DNA of 64,000 nucleotides from positions 832,001-896,000 of the forward strand of contig CAVSBO010000003.1 of the NCBI GenBank assembly GCA_963726195.1. Direction: 5' to 3'. Source of the stretch: Candidatus Thorarchaeota archaeon (GTDB lineage Archaea; Asgardarchaeota; Thorarchaeia; Thorarchaeales; Thorarchaeaceae). Made by a program: the position numbers and the translations under genes. The notes below the pieces were generated by a model. That model was given only the letters and a program-made list of their open reading frames with translations, had not been told where the DNA came from and made no database searches. Shown piece after piece: positions 6,659 through 32,430 of this stretch (its first letter is position 1; each line of letters opens with the position of its first letter).

Positions 6659-9600
6659 CGGAGCCTTTTGGGGCTGAGACGGAGGGAGACGGACAATCAG
6701 TTGTGGCCCAATGATGTCATGAAACAGCTGCAAGTATGTCTTGTCAGATGAAACCAGTACCAGTGGCCGTGATGTCTCTGATGTCCCACCAATCACCACT
6801 TCCTTATTGTCCATCACTGCTAGTGTCATGGGTGACATGGTCTTGCGAACGTGCCAACCTAGTCCAGCGAGATCCTTCACTATGGGCTGCTGTTCCTCGC
6901 TCTCGGGTATGATGAGCACTCTTCTGACAGAATCGCCCGACTTCGTTACTCGCTTGATGTCAAGACCACGCAAGCTGGCTGTGGCAATCACAATTGACTG
7001 CTGAGCCCGTTGAGCCATATCGACAATGTGAGCACGGACCTCGTCGTTTCCCGTGAGATACCAAGTCGATTCAGGCTGGGTTCTCGTTAGGTCTGCACTG
7101 ACTGCTCTTACCGCTTCCATCGCTTTCATTGTCTTGCTGACTACGGACTCCAACCCTTGGGCGACCTCCTCCGTCTTCATTCGAATCTCACGATTGTATC
7201 CGTCTTGGTCTGCACGCCATTTCTCAACGGAACCCTCAAGCTCGAGGTCGAAATGAGATAGGGCCTCCGCGCGCGACTCTTTCGCCCTGCCAATGCTCTC
7301 CTCCAACTGACCTCCGAACTGCTCCGTTGAGCCGCTGATTTCGGATACCTTGGCAGTCACCTCATTCGTGAGATGCTCCATGATGCGTCCTGAACTGCTA
7401 GCAATCTGGGTTCTGACACCCTTACGAGCTGACTCTACCTTCTTGGATACACGCTGGTTTGCGGTAGCGACGCTCTGCTTTGTTCTCTCAGAGAACGAGC
7501 TGACTGACTTGGCCACGGTCTCCTTGAAACGTGTAACCTCTTGGCCGAGTCCATCTGTTACTGACTTTGAAGCAGTTTCGCAACCAGTGAACTGCGCAGA
7601 CAACCCATCGATGGTCTCCGTGTTGCTGGTCTCCGTCTGCGAGAGTGCCTCGTTCACTGCATTGCGCACTGGCTCCGAAATTGAGGACGGGAGGCCAGAC
7701 ACAGCTTTCATGCTTCTGTCTAACGATGTGCTACACTCAGATCCCAGTGCCGCTGCTTTAACCTTGAAACTGTCTTCGGCTCCCACAAGGATGGCAATGG
7801 CGGCCCCTTCGAATTGACTGATGCTGCCCTCACTTCTCTTCACAACGCTAGTCTCGGCGTCTTCTGCACCTCTTCCGAGACTCTTCTGCATCCGTCCGAT
7901 CTTGTCCGTGAGCTTTCCAGTCAATGCCATGAGGGTTGATGAGGCACCTAGGAGTGTGGTCTTGGTATACTCCGAGAACTCGCTGAATGCTTGCTCATCC
8001 CCAGATATCTGGGACTGCAGCAAGGCTTCAGCCTCTTCGTTCGCCGCCGTCCAAGTCTTGGCGGCTTCCTCCTTGCGCGCAGCAACCTCGGCCTTGGATG
8101 ATTCCGTGCGTTGGACAGATTCCTTCAGTGCTTTCGTCGACAGAGTGTCCAGTTTCTTGCCTATGTCACTAGGGAGACGCTGCTGAGCGTCCTTTTCTGC
8201 TGAAACGTATTCATCTAGCGTTGCCTTCATGCTGCTGGTTGCCTTGTTAACAGACTCCACGATAGAATCAGCAATGCTGGCGATGCGATCGGTGAGATTG
8301 TCGCGAGTAGCCGCCAGCGATGTGTTGAATTCCTCTGATGCACGAGCTAATTCGCTTACTATCTCCTGAATAGTACCGCTTTCAATTCCACTCAGTCCCG
8401 TCTCAATGCCACCGGTTGTTGCCTCAATGCGGCTAAGCAAATCGGCCGTTGTTCGTGAGAGCACGGTTCTTCTCTCTGCAACGAGTTCGTCGAGGGCCTT
8501 CTTCATTTCATCGTATGAGTCACTGACTTTCGTGACCCTGCTCTCGATTTCGGAAGCGTATTCCTTCTTCAGCTTGGCCGAGTCCTCTTGCAGCGAGGCG
8601 ATTTCAGCCTTAACGGAATTTCTGAATTGCGTGTGTGCTGAGCCTATGAGGTCGCGCGTTTCCAAACCTTGGCTCGATAGCAAACCACCGAAAACCGAAC
8701 CCAAGCTCTCCGCCAAGTCAGAGTGCTGTTTCGCAATCTCATCAAGGCGCACACGGAACTCCTTTCGAATCGCTTCAGTCTGCCGCTCAATCCGAGATGC
8801 TTGGTCTTCGATTGCCTCGTCGATTTGTCTCTGCATTTGCTCAGCATGAGAAGCAACTGATAAGACGCTCTGTTCCAAGCGCGAATCTATTGATGAGCGG
8901 ATGTCGCGATAGAAAGCCGTTGACTCCTTGATTTGAGCAGCGGCCGTCGAAGTCATGTCCGACACTATCTCTGTCATTTTGCTCGCCATACCGGTATCAA
9001 ACTCGCGAAACGCCTTCTTGGTTCCAGTGATGGCTGACTTATTGCTTTCAGCGGTCGTCGTTAGGACTGAACCGAAAGCCGAGCTGACCTTGTTGTCAAG
9101 GTCTCCAGTTAGAGATGTAAGCTTCCCGGCCTCAGCGTCGAGAGCCGCGCCGGCATCATTGCTCGCCTGAGACAATTTCCTTTGCAGACCACGACCCGTA
9201 TCAGTTCCCCACTTCTCAAGTCCGGCTCCGAGGGAACCAGCGCTGGTGTCAATCCGGTCTCTGCTAGCGGATACTTGAGCCTGTACTAACTTCAGTATCG
9301 ACGCACGCGAGTCAGTTGTGAACGACTCGATTTGACCTTGGAGGCCAGACAGTAAACCATCTACGGCTGCAAACGCTTGATCTACTGTAGCATTTGTTCT
9401 CTCCAAATACGTTGACAATGAGCTCTTCACCGTCTCAAGATGGCTCGCGTTTGCAGAGACAACCTGTGCGAGCTGAGCCGCGAGTCCCTCAGACGCGGAT
9501 GCAATCAGAGCTGTTGGACTCGTCGCTCCAAGAACTGACGTCCATGCCCAGCGTCTCTGTTACCTTTGCCGCATTCTCAATTACCTGCCGAGCGCCCTTG

Positions 9601-15092: not shown

Positions 15093-15508
15093 CCTAAATA
15101 GTCGGCGAGCATGATTCCTGTCGCCGTCAGGCTTGCCTGAAGCCCTCTGGTTGCCATGTCGCCTCCGACTAGCAGTCCCATGTCGATCAAAGCGCGAAGG
15201 TTCCATTTGACGGTACTATATGGAAGGCTGCTTCTGCGTGATACCTTATCGGCAAGGCCTGTGACTGTCAGTTTGTGAAACCTAAGCAACCAGGCAGTCA
15301 TCCTCAGTACCGTCTTTTGAGTCTCGCTCATCCGAACATCTGCCAGTGTCAGAAATGCTGAGGCAAGGCTCTCAAAAGAAGGCTTCTCAGTCGGTTTGGC
15401 TTCTAACTCAGGTGACTCACGGCCACCAGAGAACGAATCCACCTCGTCGGCGGATTTGGCACCCACCACTTGTCTGAGCGACCCGACATCGATGGGCATT
15501 AGGTACAC
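15023..15508 (-). CDS. Winged-helix DNA-binding protein; last ~22 aa come from the inserted mini-element
   Basis: TVTGLADKVSRRSSLPYSTVKWNLRALIDMGLL HTH pattern; reading frame enters the mini-element at 15092. Confidence 0.7.
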   Translation of the reverse strand: MYLMPIDVGSLRQVVGAKSADEVDSFSGGRESPELEAKPTEKPSFESLASAFLTLADVRMSETQKTVLRMTAWLLRFHKLTVTGLADKVSRRSSLPYSTVKWNLRALIDMGLLVGGDMATRGLQASLTATGIMLADYLGSAAAAENLDKHGHETVGVHKPQ

Positions 15509-22262: not shown

Positions 22263-22971
22263 GTGATGCACTCATCAGAATCGAATACCGACAGACGATT
22301 GAGAATCAGCCATGGTCGCACTTGCAATTGCCCTCCGAATCACATCAACTGCCTGTCGGCCAAAGAGTGGATTCAGCATCAGATTGCTGTATGGGAGTTC
22401 TACTACGAGGCACGGGATGTGAGGGACAAGAACATTCATCCAGCGACCTATCCCATAGCACTTCCGTCAAAGTGCATATCTCTGTTCACTCATAAGGGTG
22501 AACTGGTGCTGGACCCATTCGTCGGTGTGGGAACAACACTCGTCGCAGCCAGAGACCTCGCACGCAACGCAGTCGGGTTCGACCTAAAGGCGGACTATGT
22601 CGATTTCTCCAACAAGCGGCTGAGCTCTATGTCGGACAATGAGACAACGCAGATTGCATTGTGCGATGACGCTCATAACATACCTTCGTACCTTGAGGAG
22701 GAAACTGTTGCCGTCTGTGTGACATCTCCGCCCTATGCAAACCTCCTGAATCGCCGCAGACAGAACAAGAGTATGAGGGGCAATCTCAGGAAGGATGAAT
22801 ACTATCTCAAGGTACAGCAGTATTCTGACGATCCGAGGGATTTGGGCACCATGGATGCCGAGCCCTATGCGAAAACGCTAGGTGAAATCTTCGGTGGCAT
22901 TCTTCCTTTAATGCGACATAGAGCACACTGTCTTGTCAACATAACTGACTACTGGTGGGAAGACAGAAGGG
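22263..22971 (+). pseudogene. N4-mC/N6-mA DNA methyltransferase, 5' part (interrupted by IS607-family element)
   Basis: HPATYP, DPFVGVGTT (motif I), TSPPY (motif IV). The frame runs into the element left end after DYWWEDRRV. Confidence 0.9.
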
Positions 22972-22989
22972 TTGACAACAGCTGCCTAG

Positions 22990-23009
22990 AAGTTGGACAA
23001 TCTTGGACA
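22990..23009 (+). repeat. Left subterminal repeat: two TTGGACA motifs at 10-bp spacing
   Basis: TTGGACA at 22993-22999 and 23003-23009; 19/20 identical to the reverse complement of 31088-31107. Confidence 0.9.
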
Positions 23010-23048
23010 CCACAGAACTGAAGAGCCGCAGCGCGACTGACACGATGC

Positions 23049-23675
23049 ATGTTGAGTGTGTCAGCAGCTGCGGTCAGGGTTGGGGTCTGTGCAAAAACCA
23101 TCCGACGGTGGGACGACAGGGGTCTTCTCCGATGTTTCAGGACCCGAGGTGGTCACAGACGAGTGCCTCAGTCAGAAATTGAACGAGTCATCTCAGAAAG
23201 GGAGCCGAGAGCAGATTCTCATATGACCTGCTCAAGAGCAACAATCGTGTACGCACGAGTATCGTCCCACGGGCAGAAGGCCTCAGGTGACCTTGACAGA
23301 CAGGTCGGCGAACTGCTCGCAAGTTCTGGCGAGGCATCTCCTCTTGTCCTCCCTGACGTCGGCTCCGGACTCAACATGAGGCGCAGGGGTCTATGGCAGC
23401 TGATACATGCTGCAGAGAGAGGACTCGTCAACCGGGTGATTGTCACTCACAGGGACAGACTGGCCCGCTTCGGGACCGAATTGATTGAGCATATCCTCTG
23501 CCTCCATGGCGTGGCCGTCAATGTCCTTCACGAGAACCGGGACATGACTCCTCAGGAAGAAGTGGTCGCCGATCTGATAGCACTAATTGCATCGTTCTCC
23601 GGACGTATCTATGGGCTTAGAGGTGCCATCCTCAGGGCCACAAGAGACCCGCTCAGACAAAGTTCTACTTCTTGA
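23049..23675 (+). CDS. tnpA: IS607-family serine recombinase transposase
   Basis: N-terminal MerR-like HTH (KTIRRWDDRG...TRGGHRR), catalytic YARVSS, DVGSG, THRDRLARFG, IASFSGRIYG. Confidence 0.95.
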   Translation: MLSVSAAAVRVGVCAKTIRRWDDRGLLRCFRTRGGHRRVPQSEIERVISEREPRADSHMTCSRATIVYARVSSHGQKASGDLDRQVGELLASSGEASPLVLPDVGSGLNMRRRGLWQLIHAAERGLVNRVIVTHRDRLARFGTELIEHILCLHGVAVNVLHENRDMTPQEEVVADLIALIASFSGRIYGLRGAILRATRDPLRQSSTS

Positions 23676-23692
23676 AAAGGGACGCGGTCCTC

Positions 23693-23731
23693 CTCACGAT
23701 TTCTCTCCAGCCCCGGTGGAGAGACCGTGGG
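23693..23731. terminator. Hairpin between convergent tnpA and cargo gene
   Basis: TCTCTCCA (23702-23709) / TGGAGAGA (23717-23724), extended by CTCACG/CGTGGG; terminator function is inferred. Confidence 0.4.
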
Positions 23732-23784
23732 CTTCAAGCTGTTTCTCTACTGCGTTTTCGGTTTTTCCGTCTTGAAACCTTGCG

Positions 23785-26700
23785 TCACTCCTGATTTCCA
23801 GAAGCTGCACCCTGTTCATGAGCCTTCCGGACATCTCTAACCACATCAGGGACCTGCTTCCTCAATACCTCGCCAAGGTTCTCAATGCTCTGGAGTCGAG
23901 GCACTATTTCGAGCTCCACAGCCTCTCTTACTTCTCGCACCGCTTGTTGTACACCTTCGCCGAGCAGGATCTTCGGGTCATCATAGAGCATTCCCGATGC
24001 TGTACGAGTTCCATCGGTTTCTTCACTTACCCAATAGATTGCCTGATTCTGAGAATACAAGGTCACTGTCCACGTCGCTGGCTCCTCCGCGAACTCTTCA
24101 TCATGGCGACCAAGGTGTGTTCCAGCATGATTCAGCCAAGATGTCACTCGCCTGATGAACTGCTGTTTGTTCCTTATGGAGAAACCGCTCATCTCGCCCT
24201 CTCTCATGCTTTCCCTTAGCATGTCTACGACTTCCTCGGCATCCTCTTCACTCTCAATCTCTATTGTCCGTGACAGGAGCGGCTCACGTCGACCCTGTCC
24301 GATAGGAAAGACAGCATATGTACAGCTTGTTTCAGACAGGTCAGAGAGCCGTAGTTCACAAGGTGGGCTTCTTGCCGAGTACCCATGTCCCTTGAGTTCT
24401 GACAGGATTCGCTTCCTGAGCGCTCCGTACTCCTCTATTGCATTCATTGGGATCCGGGACGTGATGACATTCAATATCCTCTGGCACTCTTTCTCCGCGC
24501 CGTGGCCGTGCACCAACTCGATTGTCTGGGGAGTTTCCGTAAGGAATAGTCCTGTGATTGTCGACTGTGCTTGCCACTCGACATACTTCGGCTCTGTACA
24601 TGACAGGCCGACCAGCCAAGTCTGTTCTCTCACTCTCAGATAGGTTCCGGGCTCTAGAGGTTTCAATGACAGACCGTTCCTCCGAAGGAACATGCGGACG
24701 TACTGCTCCTCATGATACACCACGCTTTCATCTTCCCCAGAACCCTAGGCATGACGATGGCAAGTCTGTACAATCGCCCTGCATAGACTCTCCCTGGGGC
24801 AAGGAGCCCATTCACAGCTTCTCCGGTCATCGGTCTTCCAAGCTGTCGCTTTACTTGATTAGGACAGTCTGGCGGCAATGATATCCGCCAGCAGGCACCG
24901 TGATCGTACTCCTCACTATAGGGCGATGGGACAGATCGACTGGTCATGTTCAATGCTCACCTTGAGGGTCCCGGCCTCTTCGAAGAACCCGGACACTCGT
25001 GCAGGGAGTTCCTCCACCTCAGTTCGTGCAGCCTTGAAAGTGACATATGGTCCAATGAAATCCAGTTCTCCGTACACGATATCATCGAAGACACTCCAAG
25101 TGACGTACGTGCCCGAGTCTGTGTACATGGGTCCTGAGTTTGTCATAGGCCATCTGAGGAGTGAAATGAGTTCTGCCGTGTATTCCACGTTCACCTCTTG
25201 GAGGATTTCATCATCGCCATCAACGAACCTAACTTGGCAGACATTATTCACCATCTCAAGACGCACACTGACAGATGCTGGTCGCGTGACAGCCTCGATG
25301 TACCTACGCAGAGAGGCTGCCACACGTTGGTAGAACGACTCTGGTAGTTTCGTTCCTTGAGAAGCTTCAGTAACAGAGGGCTTAGTGAAGGACTGTCTTA
25401 TGGCACGGAGATGACGGACTGATGAGTGCCCCTGTTCCACCAGCTCGAGGACTCCCGAGTAGACTCTCTCATGATCGTCCGTTTCCATGCTCCATGTTTC
25501 CAGCCCCTGTTCAGTTGGTCTGAATTCCATTAGGACTTGTGAGGACCCGAGAATCTCGTCGGGTGTCTGTTGTGTTAGTACCTCTTGTTTGGTCTCACTC
25601 CAGAGGAGCCCCTCCTTGTCTGGAGACTTGCTCATGAAGCAACCAATGAGCATGCGGGCCTCATTCTCGGGGTCCTGCATGACAAGCCACCAGGGAAGAG
25701 CAGTCTCATCCTCCGGTAGAAACCTGATTCCAAACGTCAGTCCAGCCGTCGTTCTTTCACTGGAAGTGACAAGCTCCACTGTCTTTGGAGGAAATGCAAC
25801 AATGGTTCCTGGCCTTGTCTTCAACCTATTGGGTGAGCGGTAGAGCCGCTGGGAATTGATTCTACCCAGGGTCGTGGCCACGTACCCCTTGCCGGCCCCT
25901 GTCTCAGGGTGTCGGTAGCGCACAAGGTCAAGGACACTTGGAGTCTTGGCGGGAGGCCCATCAAGAACTCGTACTTCGAAAGTCAGGTCATCAGGGGCTC
26001 CTCTGAACTCATGCATGACTGCGTCGAACCGTTCCTTGATGCTCTCTTTCGAGTCATCTGAGAGCATCTTGTCAGGCCACAGGCAGACAAGCCAAGGGAG
26101 CAAGGTCATCGAGAGGAGCCTTATCCTGCTGCGAGTAGCCTTGTCGGGTACGATGTCGTCCAGCCCTCTCTCCTGCACAACGAGTCCCTTCCCTTGGTTC
26201 TTGAACCGCCTTGACCAGCCCCTCAGCGGAGGTACGAGCACGAGCTCAGTGTTCATGTCTTCGGGAGAATGGCGAACGACTACTCGGATATCATCATGCA
26301 TTGGTGAGTCCCCGATGACTGGCAACCCACATTTCTCAGGCTCGACAGCATTCCTTGGTGCCACAGGTAGGTTCCAGACAATCTCAGTGACGACCTCAGC
26401 AAGAGATGAATTGTCATAGAATGGGAGAAGGGCTCTGGTTGCATATGGGACGGACTTCTCGGAAGAGGGCGTAGGTGCATCGAACCACAGGACCGTCGTC
26501 TTCTTGTTGTCTGGAAGACTGTCCAGAAGCTGGTCCATTACGACCTGTAGTCTATCTCGGTGGCTCTCCGGAGTTGCATCTCGCAGGGTATCTGCCCCCG
26601 TCACGATGACTATTGTGTGGCTATTGATGCCCTTGTCCAGCTCGAACGATGGTATGTCTCCACCCTCATAGAGATATGATAGGATTTCGTCAAGGCGCCC

Positions 26701-28745
26701 TCTAACCTCTATGCCTTGAAAGAACTCTCGAATATGGTCTGGTTGCGTCTTCGCCACCTCGTCATCAGAGTATCCTCTTGGCCTTAGGCGAAGGCGTGCC
26801 TCTGCAAGGTGGGGCTCAGTGAACTGACTTGCAAGGTCAAACCAAACAAACCGTGCACCGAGGTGGCTCTCTTTCATCTCATAGAGCATCTGAAGCCCAT
26901 GATAGTTCCGTGCATTCCAGGCGGCGGACTGGCCTGCAGATGTCGGGGATCTCCCTACAAGATAGAGAATGAATCTTCGTCTGCTCTCTAGGCTCTGCTG
27001 GAACGGGTTGTAGAGTGGTTTCCACGGGACGTCAATAGCCTCTCCCCCCTGCTTCTCAGGAACGACTTGCTCATGAATGATCAGAGCGACTCTGCTATTG
27101 CTTCCTCCAATAGGCCTGATGGCCGTTCTTTGAACTGCTCCACTCATCTTCTTGATGGATTCATAGGCCTTTACCAATAGCCCTTCAATGGTTCGTCTGG
27201 CTTTATTGATATCAGTAATGGACTCGATGACTATCGTTCCTCTTGGCACGTACCTTGGCTCCAGCCCAGTGGCTTCATGGTATCTCTCAGCCAGCGCTTG
27301 TGCATAGACCTCTACTTGTCGCTGTGCAGATGCGCTGGGAGCGGATTTGACAATGGCGTCCCATTCTTTGTCCTCAAGAGTTCGGTCTTCAACGGGTAGC
27401 TCAGCAACAATACGGGGAGGAAGCCCTCTATGCAATCTGGACTCAGATGATTTCTCTTCAGCATCAATATGCCACTGATGCCCCATGCGGGTCTTGATCT
27501 CGCAGACGAATGCTGGTCTCCAGAGGATTTGTTTCCCGTCAGCTGTGATGATCCTCTCTAGAAGTAGAATGTCCACTTTTCCCAACCCGGACTCAGTCAC
27601 TATCGCCAGCTCTGACACAATAGCATACTCAGAGGCCCCTACATACCTATGTCCATTGAAGATGACGTCATTCAGATGCCATGGGCTGGGAAAGAGGTCT
27701 GATATCCTTCTGTGCATTATCGACCCCTTTAGTTTCGCTCGACTGGTTGCCTGCTGTCTGATGTATTCGACATCAGCTTTGGTTAGGCACGGTTCTTCAA
27801 GACCGGGCGTTCTAATGAAACCCCTCTGTGTCAGTCGTTCAAGCTCTTGAAGAGCAGGATGATTGCCATAGAATGTCAGTGCTTCGTCGAGCTGGCTCCG
27901 AAAGAAGTCGAAGGACGTATTGGATGCTCCATGTTCGAAGTCCCCCATCACGCTCTTGGCCGCTTGCATCGTGGGGTGATACCCGGACTCTGAAATCAGC
28001 TCTTTCACTCTTCGAAGAGCAGCGTTCGCCCCCTTTCTGAACTCTGGTCTCCCACACTTGTGCTCTGAGTAGATGTATTCAAGATAAGGTCGTACAAGAA
28101 GGAGAAGGAGATTGCAGTACTTGGTGGTCTCGCTCACAGGCACATCACAGATTGTGCAGTAGGTGGCAAGATACTCACCATGACTCCGAGCAGCATCACC
28201 AAAGTCCATAGAGGGAAGGTCAGGATGCGTGAGCATGACTCGTGGCCCGAAGGAGGACCCCTCGTATCCTGCGACTCTAAACTCTTTTCTGTGAGATCCC
28301 GCTCGCACTGTACGTGTTCCAAATTGAGTGGCATCAGGAAATGGGAACTCTCTCTGTGAGAACTCTCTGAGGGTAGCACCACATGCATTAAACCGCTGGT
28401 TCAGAGGACCCACAGTGCCATCAGGATTCTTCTGTCTGGAGACCTCAGTATGCCCAAATTCAGCAGCCTTCTCATAGAGCATCTTGAGCATGTTGTTCCT
28501 GATTTGAGGTTCAGCCTTGAGAACGGACGAGCAGTCAGGGGTACCTCGTTCCTTGCTCAGAAGATAGACGTGTCGAGTCTCTGCCAAATCTCGTAGGAAC
28601 TCCAGTAATGAGCACAGGTCAGTCTGTTCTTCATGCTACATTGGAGTTTCACCGTCGAGGCAAGCCCTGTCCGCAATGCAGCTGACATGACACGTTCTGG
28701 ATGAACGGGTAGTGGCCGAACAGGACGCCCTCTTGGCCTTGCCAT
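23785..28745 (-). CDS. Giant cargo protein (~1,650 aa) with RecB/Cas4-type PD-(D/E)XK nuclease and degenerate RecA-like region; three frameshifts (~28637, ~24917, ~24735)
   Basis: ORFs 28557-28745, 24916-28587, 24663-24953 and 23785-24723 join seamlessly with single indels. Motifs: GSIMH, SELAI, GKVDILL, CEIKT, QRQVEVY. Confidence 0.75.
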
Positions 28746-28955
28746 CTCACTGATAGGATGGCATTGTGATATTTAAGTTCATTTTTTGGAAGTAACAGGC
28801 GCGGAACTCAGGTATCAAGAACTGGCTTGTTTCATAAAATCTGCCCCTTCTTCTTTATCAAACAAAAGGCTAACCTTTTACTCTGGTAATTATACGTCGC
28901 TTGCTTTTGTATGCCCTTATATCCCGACTTCAGCACCAATATGCGGTAGAGGCTG
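28746..28955. promoter_or_regulatory. AT-rich divergent promoter region for cargo gene and tnpB
   Basis: Clearly AT-richer than the flanks; TATA-like TTAAAT on the minus strand near 28770 and CTTATAT near 28918. Confidence 0.5.
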
Positions 28956-31087
28956 ATGAAGAGACAACCCCGGCGTCATCCCCGGGCGCCAAACCATGAC
29001 GTACAACAGGCAAGGCAACAAACAATGGATGATAATTATACGTCCTCTTCATCCACTTACCAAGCCGAGAAGTTCTCTCTCAACTCATATCCTAGAATTG
29101 TCGATCGAAAGGGAAAGAAAAGACGACCTGACCCTTCCTTCTCCGCAACACACAGACCCCCCGTCGAACAAGCACTAAGGGAGCTTGTCAGCGGCAACAA
29201 GTGCTCTGACATCGATATCCAGACACTTGAGCAGCACTTCGACAAGTATCTCAATGCAGTCAATCTCGTACTTGATGAGGTATACTCTGCTTCCGATCGC
29301 GCCCAGCGTGTCGGAGAGCGATTGCGCTCTTCAAGAGGACAAGGCTATGTAGTACTAAGAGAAGAGAACTTTCTAGAATGGAAACCGGACAACAGGTTCG
29401 GACAACTAGTCTATGAGCGAATGTATCGTAATGTCCTTGAGACCGCAGCCCGCATCGTGTTGGCTGACTACACGCGCAGGACACTGGTCAACTCACTAAT
29501 CACGATGCTGGCGAGTGATAGGCAGCAACTCAAGTCGCTCATGGCTCTCAAACGAATCCCTGCTCCTCTTGTCAGAAAGCTGCGAGCGACAGTCGGTGAA
29601 ACATCTGGTTCGTACTATCACTACGCGCTCACGGCATGCAAACAGCTTCGAAGAGCACTCGATGAACACCTCCTTGAGAGCTTCGGCGAGTCCACATCCA
29701 TCCGAAGACTAGCAAGGGACCGAGTTCGCGACCTTCTCGATACTCAATCGTCTGAATCAATCAAGGCCATGAATGCAACACTCAAGAAAGTGCAGAAATG
29801 GCACAAGACCGGTTTTCCATTCACTGCTCCCATTTTCAGACAAACCACCATGGACTTTACTGCATCTACTGAAAACACAACAGGACAAGGGTACTGGTTC
29901 ATGGAGGACTCCGAGCGACAGGACGAGGTTATCCTGTATATCAAGACCCCTCCCGGGGTCACAGGTCGTCAAGCCACGCCTGATTCACCGTACAAGAGCC
30001 AAACTCTTCGATTCAGGTTCCTCGACTGGTTGCCCCGAAAGGCAGCCCGTGCTCACAAAAAGGCAGAGGAGTCGAAAGCTCACGGTCATTTCAGCAGGGC
30101 CGTGGAGTCTGAATATCGTGCTGCACGCTTTGACGATATGACCCAACAGCTGAGGAACAATGTCAGACTGCAGTGCCTGAATAGACAACTTTCTTCTCTG
30201 AAGTCCAGAAAGGACATCGATGGAGAGAGGGTCAATGAACTGAAAGCCCAGATAACGGCGCTCAGACAGACCAGAAGGTGTGCCCCGCCCATCCTCAGTC
30301 TGCGAGGACACACTGCCACACTCATTATTCCCTTCCTATGCCCTGACAAACAGATGCTGAAACGAGTGCTGCCAACAGTCCCAAGGACAGGCAGGGCAGG
30401 AGTCGACCGGGGTCTGAGATATCCGGTGGTCCTCTCAGTAAAGAACGGTGCAAACAGTATGATGAAACAAAGATAGGAAGGCCAGAGTCATTCGAGAGAC
30501 GCGAGAGGCTCAGACAACGTACACGAGTCTTGATGTCACAGATCGTGCGACGACGGAACAACTGGGACAGGAAACGACCGATGCTGTCACCTCCGTCCTC
30601 TATTCTGAAACGGGAGAGAGAGCTGGAGGCAGTGTGGGCCAAGGTCCGACGCATCGACCGAGAAATCTCCCATCAGCTGGCCGCTGAGACCGTCTGGTTC
30701 TGTGAGCATCGTGGTGTCAAGACTGTCTACTTCGAAGACCTACGGTACTTCCAACCACAGGGCGGGTTCAAAACTCATTCATGGGAGCTGTCAACCAACC
30801 TCTGGGGGAAAATCATTGAAGGGGTCCGATATCGCAGACAGGCCCTAGGTCACAAGTACGGTGGAGTATGGACTGTGAACCCAGCCATGACATCCCAGAG
30901 ATGTAGTACCTGTGGTGAGAAAGGAGTGCGCGTCAGAGACAGTGATTCCACAGAGGAGGAGCACGGTGGGGAGTTCTTCTACTGCCCGAGCTGTGACCTC
31001 AAACTGCACGCAGACGTGAACGCGGCCAGAAACATCCTTATGATTCAACAACCCAAGCCCAGTGCCGTTTCTGGGCGGACTGCTTGA
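28956..31087 (+). CDS. tnpB: Large TnpB/Cas12-like RNA-guided endonuclease (~710 aa), one frameshift near 30452
   Basis: RuvC-I GVDRG (D484), RuvC-II YFEDL, VNPAMTSQRCSTC...CPSC zinc finger, RuvC-III HADVNAARNI. The downstream frame is open from ~30452 (QYDETKIGRPESF...). Confidence 0.88.
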
Positions 31088-31118
31088 TGTCCAAGTTTGT
31101 CCAACTTACAATGAACGG
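31056..31118 (+). ncRNA. Putative 3' part of TnpB omega/re-RNA scaffold (hairpin plus terminal pseudoknot)
   Basis: GCCCAG/CTGGGC stem; loop CCGTT is complementary to terminal AACGG; the 25-nt block is identical in the mini-element. The 5' boundary cannot be defined from sequence. Confidence 0.6.
31088..31107 (-). repeat. Right subterminal repeat: two TTGGACA motifs (inverted) at 10-bp spacing
   Basis: TGTCCAA at 31088-31094 and 31098-31104. Confidence 0.9.
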
Positions 31119-31294
31119 TTCCTGCTCACATGTATGTCATCAATGCATTGCAGGATGTAGGGTACGAACTCCGTAACATAATCATCTGGGACAGGCAGAA
31201 CATAGTGAACCGTGCTGGCATCTTCGGGTGGCCCAACAATTACATCACTCTCAGCACGACCTTCGAGTACATTGTTGATTTCTGGCGTCCATGA
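31119..31294 (+). pseudogene. DNA methyltransferase, 3' part
   Basis: PAHMYVINALQDVGYELRNIIIWDRQN...TTFEYIVDFWRP-stop, typical of N4/N6 MTases (IIW, EYI); in frame with the 5' part after element removal. Confidence 0.9.
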
Positions 31295-31351: not shown

Positions 31352-32430
31352 TCAGATTCCGAGAATGGGAAATACCAATTCCTTGACCTTTCGAACTGTT
31401 TCGCGCACGGTCATCCATATTTCTGCATCATCCTTGAAAGGCGGCTTTTGCTTGGGAGGAGAATACTTGCGACCTGACAAGCACGGATATGACCGTGGCC
31501 ACACCCCAGCACAAAGAGTCTGGATGGTACCCTCCGCCCGTCACTACTCCAAGTCGACCGTCACTCCACTTGTGTGCTGCATTGTGTATTCTCTCTGCGA
31601 TGTATCTTATCATCGTCGTCGTCAGTTTGAGGTGCGCTAGGCGATCCAGGTAATGTGCATCAAAGCCGGGCAGAAACAGGATGAACTGAGGACGAAAGAA
31701 ATCGACCAGCTTCGGGACCAGCTCGTCAAAGGCATATCTGTATACTCCATCGCCCGCGTCCATCGGAAATGGCATATTGATGTTGTAGCCGGAGCCACGA
31801 CCAGAACCGACCTCGTTCACGTACCCTTCGTGAGGGTACATCCATTCAGGATCCTCATGGAAAGAGATGACCATGACCTCCGGATCGTCGTAGAAGTACG
31901 CTTGGTCCCCATTTCCGTGGTGGACATCGAAATCCGCGACAAGTATTCGATTCAGACCATTCTGTTTGAGCTCGCTAACAGCGGCCGCGATATCATTGAA
32001 AACACAGAAGCCACCACCCTTATCGAACTTGGCGTGATGAAAGCCGCCGGTGGGAGACATAAAGTGCTCCACGCGTCCCGACATGATTGAGTGGACTCCA
32101 GTGACGGTAGCACCGGACAAAACTAGAGCATTCTCGTATATTCCTCTGAAACCCGGCGTGTCTATGTCAATCTCACCTTGGCCGGTCTCAGAAATCGTTC
32201 TGACCTTCTCAATGTATTCGGAGGAATGCACGCGCTCGAGAATGGGCACAGGAAGAGACTCTGCTTGTCAGCTCAGTTACGTTCTGAGATGCAAGCAGCC
32301 CGGCCGAATCCAAGAAATCCCTGATCATTCTGAAACGCCCGGGTCTCAATGGGTGCCGGTCACCATAGTCAAAACTGTCGAAGACCGGGCTCCACATGAA
32401 GCCGACTTGGCAGTCTCTCCTCGGGATCAC
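31352..32430 (-). CDS. Histone deacetylase/AcuC-family protein, two frameshifts
   Basis: HPLRPGR (upstream frame), GGFHHA, GFCVFND, DFDVHHGNG, GFDAH, GGGY; C-terminus continues in another frame to 31352. Confidence 0.85.

Follow-up and report, generated by a model that had tools for sequence, protein, structure and literature searches.

A giant aCas1-type gene, interrupted by three single-nucleotide shifts and paired with TnpB, in an 8.1-kb Thorarchaeota element

A stretch of 64,000 nucleotides from a Candidatus Thorarchaeota archaeon (assembly GCA_963726195.1, contig CAVSBO010000003.1, positions 832,001 to 896,000; the whole stretch is called the window here) contains an 8.1-kb element whose largest gene encodes a giant protein of about 1,650 residues. 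This gene is a single unit cut by three single-nucleotide shifts. It is a further, possibly broken, member of a published family, aCas1, whose link to TnpB is already known. The giant protein and TnpB are the constant core of these elements; the recombinase TnpA is optional and occurs in a minority. The unity of the gene, its domains, its pairing with TnpB, the borders of the element and the lack of a target-site duplication were all demonstrated. Tentatively, and at somewhat below an even chance, we suggest that the giant protein, which is the obligate and divergently transcribed partner of TnpB in transposons of 7-8 kb, is the element's recombination or DNA-processing module and acts with TnpB. 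Coordinates of all features are collected in Table 1.

Four stop-free frames of the minus strand (28745-28557, 28635-24919, 24956-24666 and 24744-23788) aligned end to end with about 50 single-frame Thorarchaeota homologues of 1,520-1,700 aa, recovered by word-indexed search. The closest of these, P0005, aligned over its full length at 86% identity. The positions of the shifts were placed by tblastn of P0005 and by reading the raw DNA. Shifts 2 and 3 compensate each other, and the large piece and the last piece share one frame; the 63 codons between them are out of frame, yet still match the homologues. A preliminary description of this DNA had joined four open reading frames (ORFs) by single-base shifts. 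The single gene that it proposed is borne out by the homologues, but its first junction was misplaced. The proposed KLQC/HEEQ join comes about 20 codons before the actual shift because frame A (...HYWSSYEIWQ) continues to match the homologues as far as EIWQ. The same description allowed that homologues might reveal separate genes; each of them is a single full-length ORF.

Real decay and assembly error are about evenly balanced as explanations of the three shifts. It is a coin toss whether the set of four frames is functionless today in its own genome, either as a dead pseudogene or as separate genes. Seventeen ordinary genes of the same assembly (24.8 kb), aligned with orthologues from relatives as a control, contained two frame changes, as compared to three in 5 kb of the giant gene, or approximately seven times the rate. 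The adjacent tnpB contains at least one more shift. Four copies of the giant gene are present in this genome, an intact one of 1,722 aa at C16:21692-26857 among them, and two of the three copies other than the one in the window are also broken. However, one of the two control changes is a non-homopolymer single-nucleotide shift that splits the essential rpoB (G000 C16:214952-214954; ...ESDREID*/...DVVSDDEEI), and the other lies in the gene at C14:12901-14902; indel errors are therefore present in the assembly, and such errors are a real alternative to decay. The conservation of the codons that shifts 2 and 3 put out of frame also argues against a pseudogene, as does the overwhelming intactness of family members elsewhere. 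The same indel errors may also depress the completeness score of the assembly.

Table 1. Features of the 8.1-kb element and its insertion site, in window coordinates (P0001 res, residue numbers in P0001)
Feature	Position	Strand	Remarks
DNA methylase (N6_N4_Mtase), upstream part, split by the insertion	22263..22973	plus	continues 31118-31294
Left end, subterminal repeat AAGTTGGACAATCTTGGACA	22974..23012	plus	
IS607-type TnpA, MerR-like HTH and serine recombinase, intact	23049..23675	plus	Pfam Resolvase and MerR HTH; sole copy in the genome
Giant aCas1-type gene, ~1,650 codons	23785..28745	minus	ATG 28745-28743, stop 23787-23785, three 1-nt shifts
C-terminal ~790 aa, several small alpha/beta domains, putative Zn site H-x4-C...H-x2-C	23788..26055	minus	
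Frameshift 3, one base missing (gtt ctg ggg g; VMPRV.G/EDESVVY)	24735..24743	minus	within 24741-24735, at or beside a GGGG run
Frameshift 2, one extra base (cta-t-agt; CPIAL/SEEYDHGACW), ~24918	24916..24920	minus	inside the conserved H-x4-C...H-x2-C motif
RecA/RAD51/KaiC-like domain, degenerate P-loop	26056..26991	minus	Q569 replaces Lys; D600 kept
RecB/Cas4-like PD-(D/E)xK nuclease	27223..27780	minus	P0001 res 286-471; G304 H308 E342 D355 E379 K381 Q440 Y444
Diverged Cas1-like helical catalytic domain	27976..28700	minus	P0001 res ~1-220; candidate catalytic E42, H137, D144, D147
Frameshift 1, one base missing (...YEIWQ[x]TRHVYLL)	28578..28580	minus	frame A matches homologues to EIWQ, frame B from TRHVYLL
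AT-hook-like RGRP, N-terminus (consensus M.R.RGRP..P.PVHPERV)	28722..28733	minus	
Divergent ~710-aa TnpB, Cas12f1-like TNB domain	28956..31087	plus	shifted between 30456 and 30527
Right end: hairpin GCCCAG...CTGGGC, inverted TGTCCAA repeats, terminus ...ACAATGAACGG	31056..31117	plus	

The domains of the giant protein were assigned from an AlphaFold model (pLDDT 76, alignment of 46 sequences) that covered the main piece from residue 1 to residue 860 and gave three matches, and conservation was counted in 111 full-length relatives taken from an exhaustive profile search. That search defined a family of 183 clusters at 50% identity, with most members 1,400-2,350 aa in length. The domains and their conserved catalytic residues are observed in these data, and catalysis itself is predicted. 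Pfam, PADLOC and NCBIfam searches with the pieces and their relatives returned only noise (SiaC, RdgC; E >= 0.06), a profile search of PDB sequences found no match, and a search of the ESM Atlas by features found none that was usable.

The eight motif residues of the nuclease domain (E or D at position 379) are conserved in 108-110 of 110 sequences and map to the model strands and helix where they are expected, and the alpha-beta-beta-beta-alpha-beta core carries D...(D/E)xK and QxxxY as in the RecB/Cas4 PD-(D/E)xK fold. The G..H, E, D, ExK and QxxxY elements follow the canonical order of Cas4 and RecB nucleases. The RecB-type nuclease read from these motifs in the preliminary description is upheld by near-invariant residues and by a core fold in the model. 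In contrast to canonical Cas4, with its Cys at C26, C164, C167 and C173, the domain contains no conserved Cys, and the region has no Pfam match to Cas_Cas4. We regard it as RecB-like and not as Cas4 proper because the Fe-S cysteines are absent.

The RecA/KaiC-like domain displays the RecA core fold, and the absence of a Walker-A lysine noted earlier is confirmed: where a GxxxxGK[ST] motif would be expected, the window protein reads ...SAGQS. Among the 111 sequences, the lysine position is occupied by Q in 30, K in 13, E in 12 and P in 10, and the Walker-B aspartate D600 is retained in 109. The domain shares its core fold and Walker-B aspartate with RAD51 paralogues, KaiC and archaeal RadB-like proteins, but differs from them in mostly lacking the Walker-A lysine and in lying within a multidomain nuclease.

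In the case of the C-terminal part, which had been described as about 800 unrecognised residues, structure prediction leaves that description standing. The last 765 residues of the closest intact homologue gave a confident model (pLDDT 88) with several small alpha/beta domains, and nothing convincing was found for it among PDB or ESM Atlas structures. The H-x4-C...H-x2-C motif, on which frameshift 2 falls, is conserved in 85 of the 86 sequences where it is present and is a probable zinc site.

The N-terminal region contains an AT-hook-like motif and a putative Cas1-like catalytic domain, both overlooked in the earlier description. R67, N79, G86, H137, D144, D147 and R150 are conserved in 101-104 of 104 sequences. 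Profile-profile alignment (hhalign) with canonical Thorarchaeota Cas1 was weak but collinear (P 0.002, probability 14%), pairing E42, the N79/N83/G86 block, H137 and D144/D147 with the Glu, PxNAxLxxGY, His and Asp/Glu of Cas1. No match to Cas1 PF01867 was found in the giant protein, in 55 relatives or in a six-frame scan of the genome. The N-terminal beta-sandwich of Cas1 was not found either; in the model, helices start at residue 3, and the alignment begins past the Cas1 N-domain. The giant protein differs from Cas1 integrases and casposases in having no Pfam match, no N-terminal beta domain, no Cas2 and no CRISPR array, in being five times larger, and in the lack of a target-site duplication. 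It resembles the Geobacter Cas4-Cas1 fusion (PDB 7mi4) in joining Cas4-like and Cas1-like parts in one polypeptide, but in the reverse order, with the Cas1-like part before the nuclease.

The association with TnpB was assessed in 26 loci, found in this genome, on three metagenome contigs and in twenty stretches of relatives' genomes. A divergent TnpB lies upstream of the giant gene in all 26, which supports the link to the large TnpB proposed in the preliminary description. The label of cargo given there is misleading, as the giant protein is the constant partner and TnpA is the optional gene. Two kinds of TnpB were found, one of about 720 aa with a C-terminal TNB domain, to whose group the window belongs, and one of about 550-610 aa with a C-terminal extension. 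The window tnpB seems to stop approximately 8 codons before the end of the intact copy (C16:26990-29164). The only TnpBs seen without an adjoining giant gene were a copy of the ~720-aa type, itself in two frames (C13:52654-54787), and a fragment (C13:118366-118725).

TnpA is located between the left end of the element and the 3' end of the giant gene. It was found only with the ~720-aa TnpB group, where it adjoins the giant gene in 4 of 11 loci and is absent from the other 7, and no TnpA was found in any of the 14 loci of the ~550-aa group. The TnpA-giant-TnpB layout is also seen in L074 and L080, as a remnant in L072 and, judged by coordinates, in at least ten further places. A 205-aa acidic ORF occupying the TnpA position of another locus (L066:7527-8141) was considered and rejected, being no serine recombinase and having no Pfam match.

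The borders of the element are defined by its insertion into a DNA methylase gene. Removal of 22974-31117 restores the methylase frame codon for codon as compared to a paralogue, an intact gene that is 68% identical (C7:121123-121767). Further copies of the end sequences (22967-23012 and 31056-31121) are found at other places in the genome, including three mini-elements of about 190 bp with both ends (C3:337527-337717, C16:77272-77464 and C4:111629-111819) and approximately eleven further copies of the right end. Both window junctions carry GG(T) with no longer duplication, and six left junctions have the common target AAGGG/T, where the slash marks the junction. Across the mini-elements and end copies, all left junctions follow AAGGG/T and nearly all right junctions read AACGG/T. 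Neither a target-site duplication nor a terminal inverted repeat was found at any well-defined insertion. An 8-bp repeat, TTCATAAT, flanking the L012 element (7741-7748 and 15116-15123) was considered as a target duplication; it is probably due to chance because it was not reproduced at the other insertions (L010, L011, L066, L077 and the window).

Taken together, the junctions, ends, mini-elements and TnpA of the window element have the pattern of IS607. TnpA and TnpB are both present, and insertion occurred at a GG core without duplication; a MerR-HTH serine recombinase, a TnpB at the right end, subterminal repeats and mini-elements are likewise shared with the IS607 family. However, the element is not a compact two-gene unit of about 2 kb. 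It is 8.1 kb long, with a 5-kb gene on the opposite strand between tnpA and tnpB, and most copies of the aCas1 element do not carry tnpA.

Makarova et al. are said to have described aCas1 as a partner of TnpB in CRISPR J in 2020. The available text of Altae-Tran et al. 2023 (PMC10691335) describes aCas1-associated TnpBs in two Asgard groups (Cas1H-Asgard-1 and -2), proposes aCas1 as a transposase that replaces the Y1 or serine recombinase, and reports that, downstream, tnpB is followed by a variable stretch and then by GTTCACTCA. We identify the giant family with aCas1 of that paper because the variable stretch and GTTCACTCA were recovered in 14 loci of relatives with the ~550-610-aa TnpB. The window's own TnpB group has a different right end (...ACAATGAACGG) in place of this signature and is taken to be the other aCas1 group, so far as the available text describes it. 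In addition to conserved flanking ends, the two data sets share an Asgard (Thorarchaeota) host, adjacency to TnpB and two TnpB groups; they differ in that the recombinase is replaced in the published account, as far as the text goes, whereas many elements here carry IS607 TnpA and have serine-recombinase-like junctions. The RecB-like, RecA-like and novel C-terminal domains with their candidate catalytic residues were not found in the available part of that paper, nor were the co-occurrence of IS607 TnpA and the IS607-type junctions of aCas1 elements.

Within our collection, the best homologues of the giant protein are from Thorarchaeota. One archaeal family accounts for nearly all occurrences, with the giant gene in 28 of its 43 genomes as compared to 1 of about 157 in the rest of the phylum. 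Genomes that have it usually hold several mostly intact copies. Two sister elements with the ~550-aa TnpB (L066:1222-8473 in G014 and L077:2579-9816 in G028) share 88% identity over 7,252 bp and have different flanks. In these, a variable stretch of 8-13 nt and GTTCACTCA are located about 30 nt inwards of the element end, and not at the end itself.

If the giant protein is an auxiliary module, a possible sequence of events can be outlined. TnpA, acting in cis or in trans, would make the GG-core exchange that moves the element, and TnpB would cut the empty or excised site. The RecB-like nuclease of the giant protein would then trim the ends left by TnpB, and the Cas1-like and RecA-like parts may bind and subsequently join or resolve the DNA, so that the element would be copied back or integrated. 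All of these biochemical steps are inferred. A homing accessory that would resect TnpB-made breaks, as suggested in the preliminary description, is plausible. For the window copy, the auxiliary module is ranked first because TnpA explains the junctions and no Cas1-style duplication is present.

Several observations weigh against an auxiliary role. A part in repairing the breaks made by TnpB is wholly conjectural. Comparison of the nuclease region with the canonical Thorarchaeota Cas4 profile was not significant (hhalign probability 1%), and by sequence the likeness of the N-terminal domain to Cas1 is weak, as the alignment above indicates. In addition, ten genomes with several intact giant copies lack any TnpA homologue, and elements without TnpA, 84-88% identical to each other, occur in unrelated flanks of related genomes, with no duplication and no terminal inverted repeats.

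It is because such TnpA-less elements appear to be mobile that a second reading is favoured by part of the evidence, namely that the giant protein serves as the element's own transposase or integrase, with Cas1-like strand transfer and RecB-like end preparation, and that TnpA is a later add-on or marks a hybrid. The giant protein is universal in the elements, and TnpA is missing from the 14 loci with the ~550-aa TnpB, from 7 of 11 in the window's group and from the ten multi-copy genomes. The candidate Cas1-type catalytic residues are invariant, and the available text of Altae-Tran et al. 2023 (PMC10691335) makes the same proposal. However, the elements have neither a target-site duplication nor a terminal inverted repeat, unlike casposons and CRISPR integration, and the dimerising N-terminal domain of Cas1 is missing. 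The window junctions fit the GG core of a serine recombinase, the window element shares its ends with the mini-elements of ~190 bp, and it carries a bona fide TnpA. On balance we consider a transposase rather unlikely; it remains close to the auxiliary module in standing.

A passenger role, in which the giant protein would serve the host or the element as cargo or as a defence or addiction module, is improbable. Its nuclease domains and location in a mobile element would suit such a role, as would its large size and lineage-specific distribution. However, no PADLOC model matched (E up to 1), no toxin- or antitoxin-like partner is present, and in every locus examined the giant gene had TnpB beside it, always in the same divergent arrangement. 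Several divergent copies per genome, and not one defence island, also argue against it. Slightly less probable still is an adaptation-like module, neither transposase nor repair factor, that would install or renew the guide or target specificity of TnpB, a reading raised because of a sole hint in the sister group, where the variable stretch is bounded by conserved sequence including the CRISPR-repeat-like GTTCACTCA. If true, the module would be a surviving intermediate that links a TnpB transposon to CRISPR-Cas12 with spacer acquisition.

Cas12 descends from TnpB, and the enzymes of CRISPR adaptation are Cas1 and Cas4. The aCas1-TnpB family is a natural system for asking how RNA-guided nucleases and integrases first cooperated, and aCas1 now has a domain map and candidate catalytic residues. 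The window copy alone adds nothing in this respect and may be broken. The published idea, as given in the available text (PMC10691335), that aCas1 replaces the transposase needs testing because an IS607 recombinase and IS607-type junctions co-occur with aCas1.

Asgard transposons built on giant genes are also represented by the aloposons of Heimdallarchaeia (Wu et al. 2022, PMC8813620), which have tandem genes for proteins of 3,000-6,000 aa, integrate at tRNA genes and carry ParA-like genes. Identity with these was set aside. TnpB and Cas1 are unmentioned in that paper, and the two kinds of element are unrelated as far as is visible.

Two further observations concern the surroundings of individual copies. 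The L012 element lies in the RNA-polymerase operon, where it separates nusA from rpS12. Genes of the histone-deacetylase family flank two copies, in the window (31428-32249, minus strand) and at L007:5789-6625 (plus strand), beside the intact C16 copy; the gene on the C16 side contains only the first half of the domain. These flanks may reflect chance, a target preference or rearrangement between copies.

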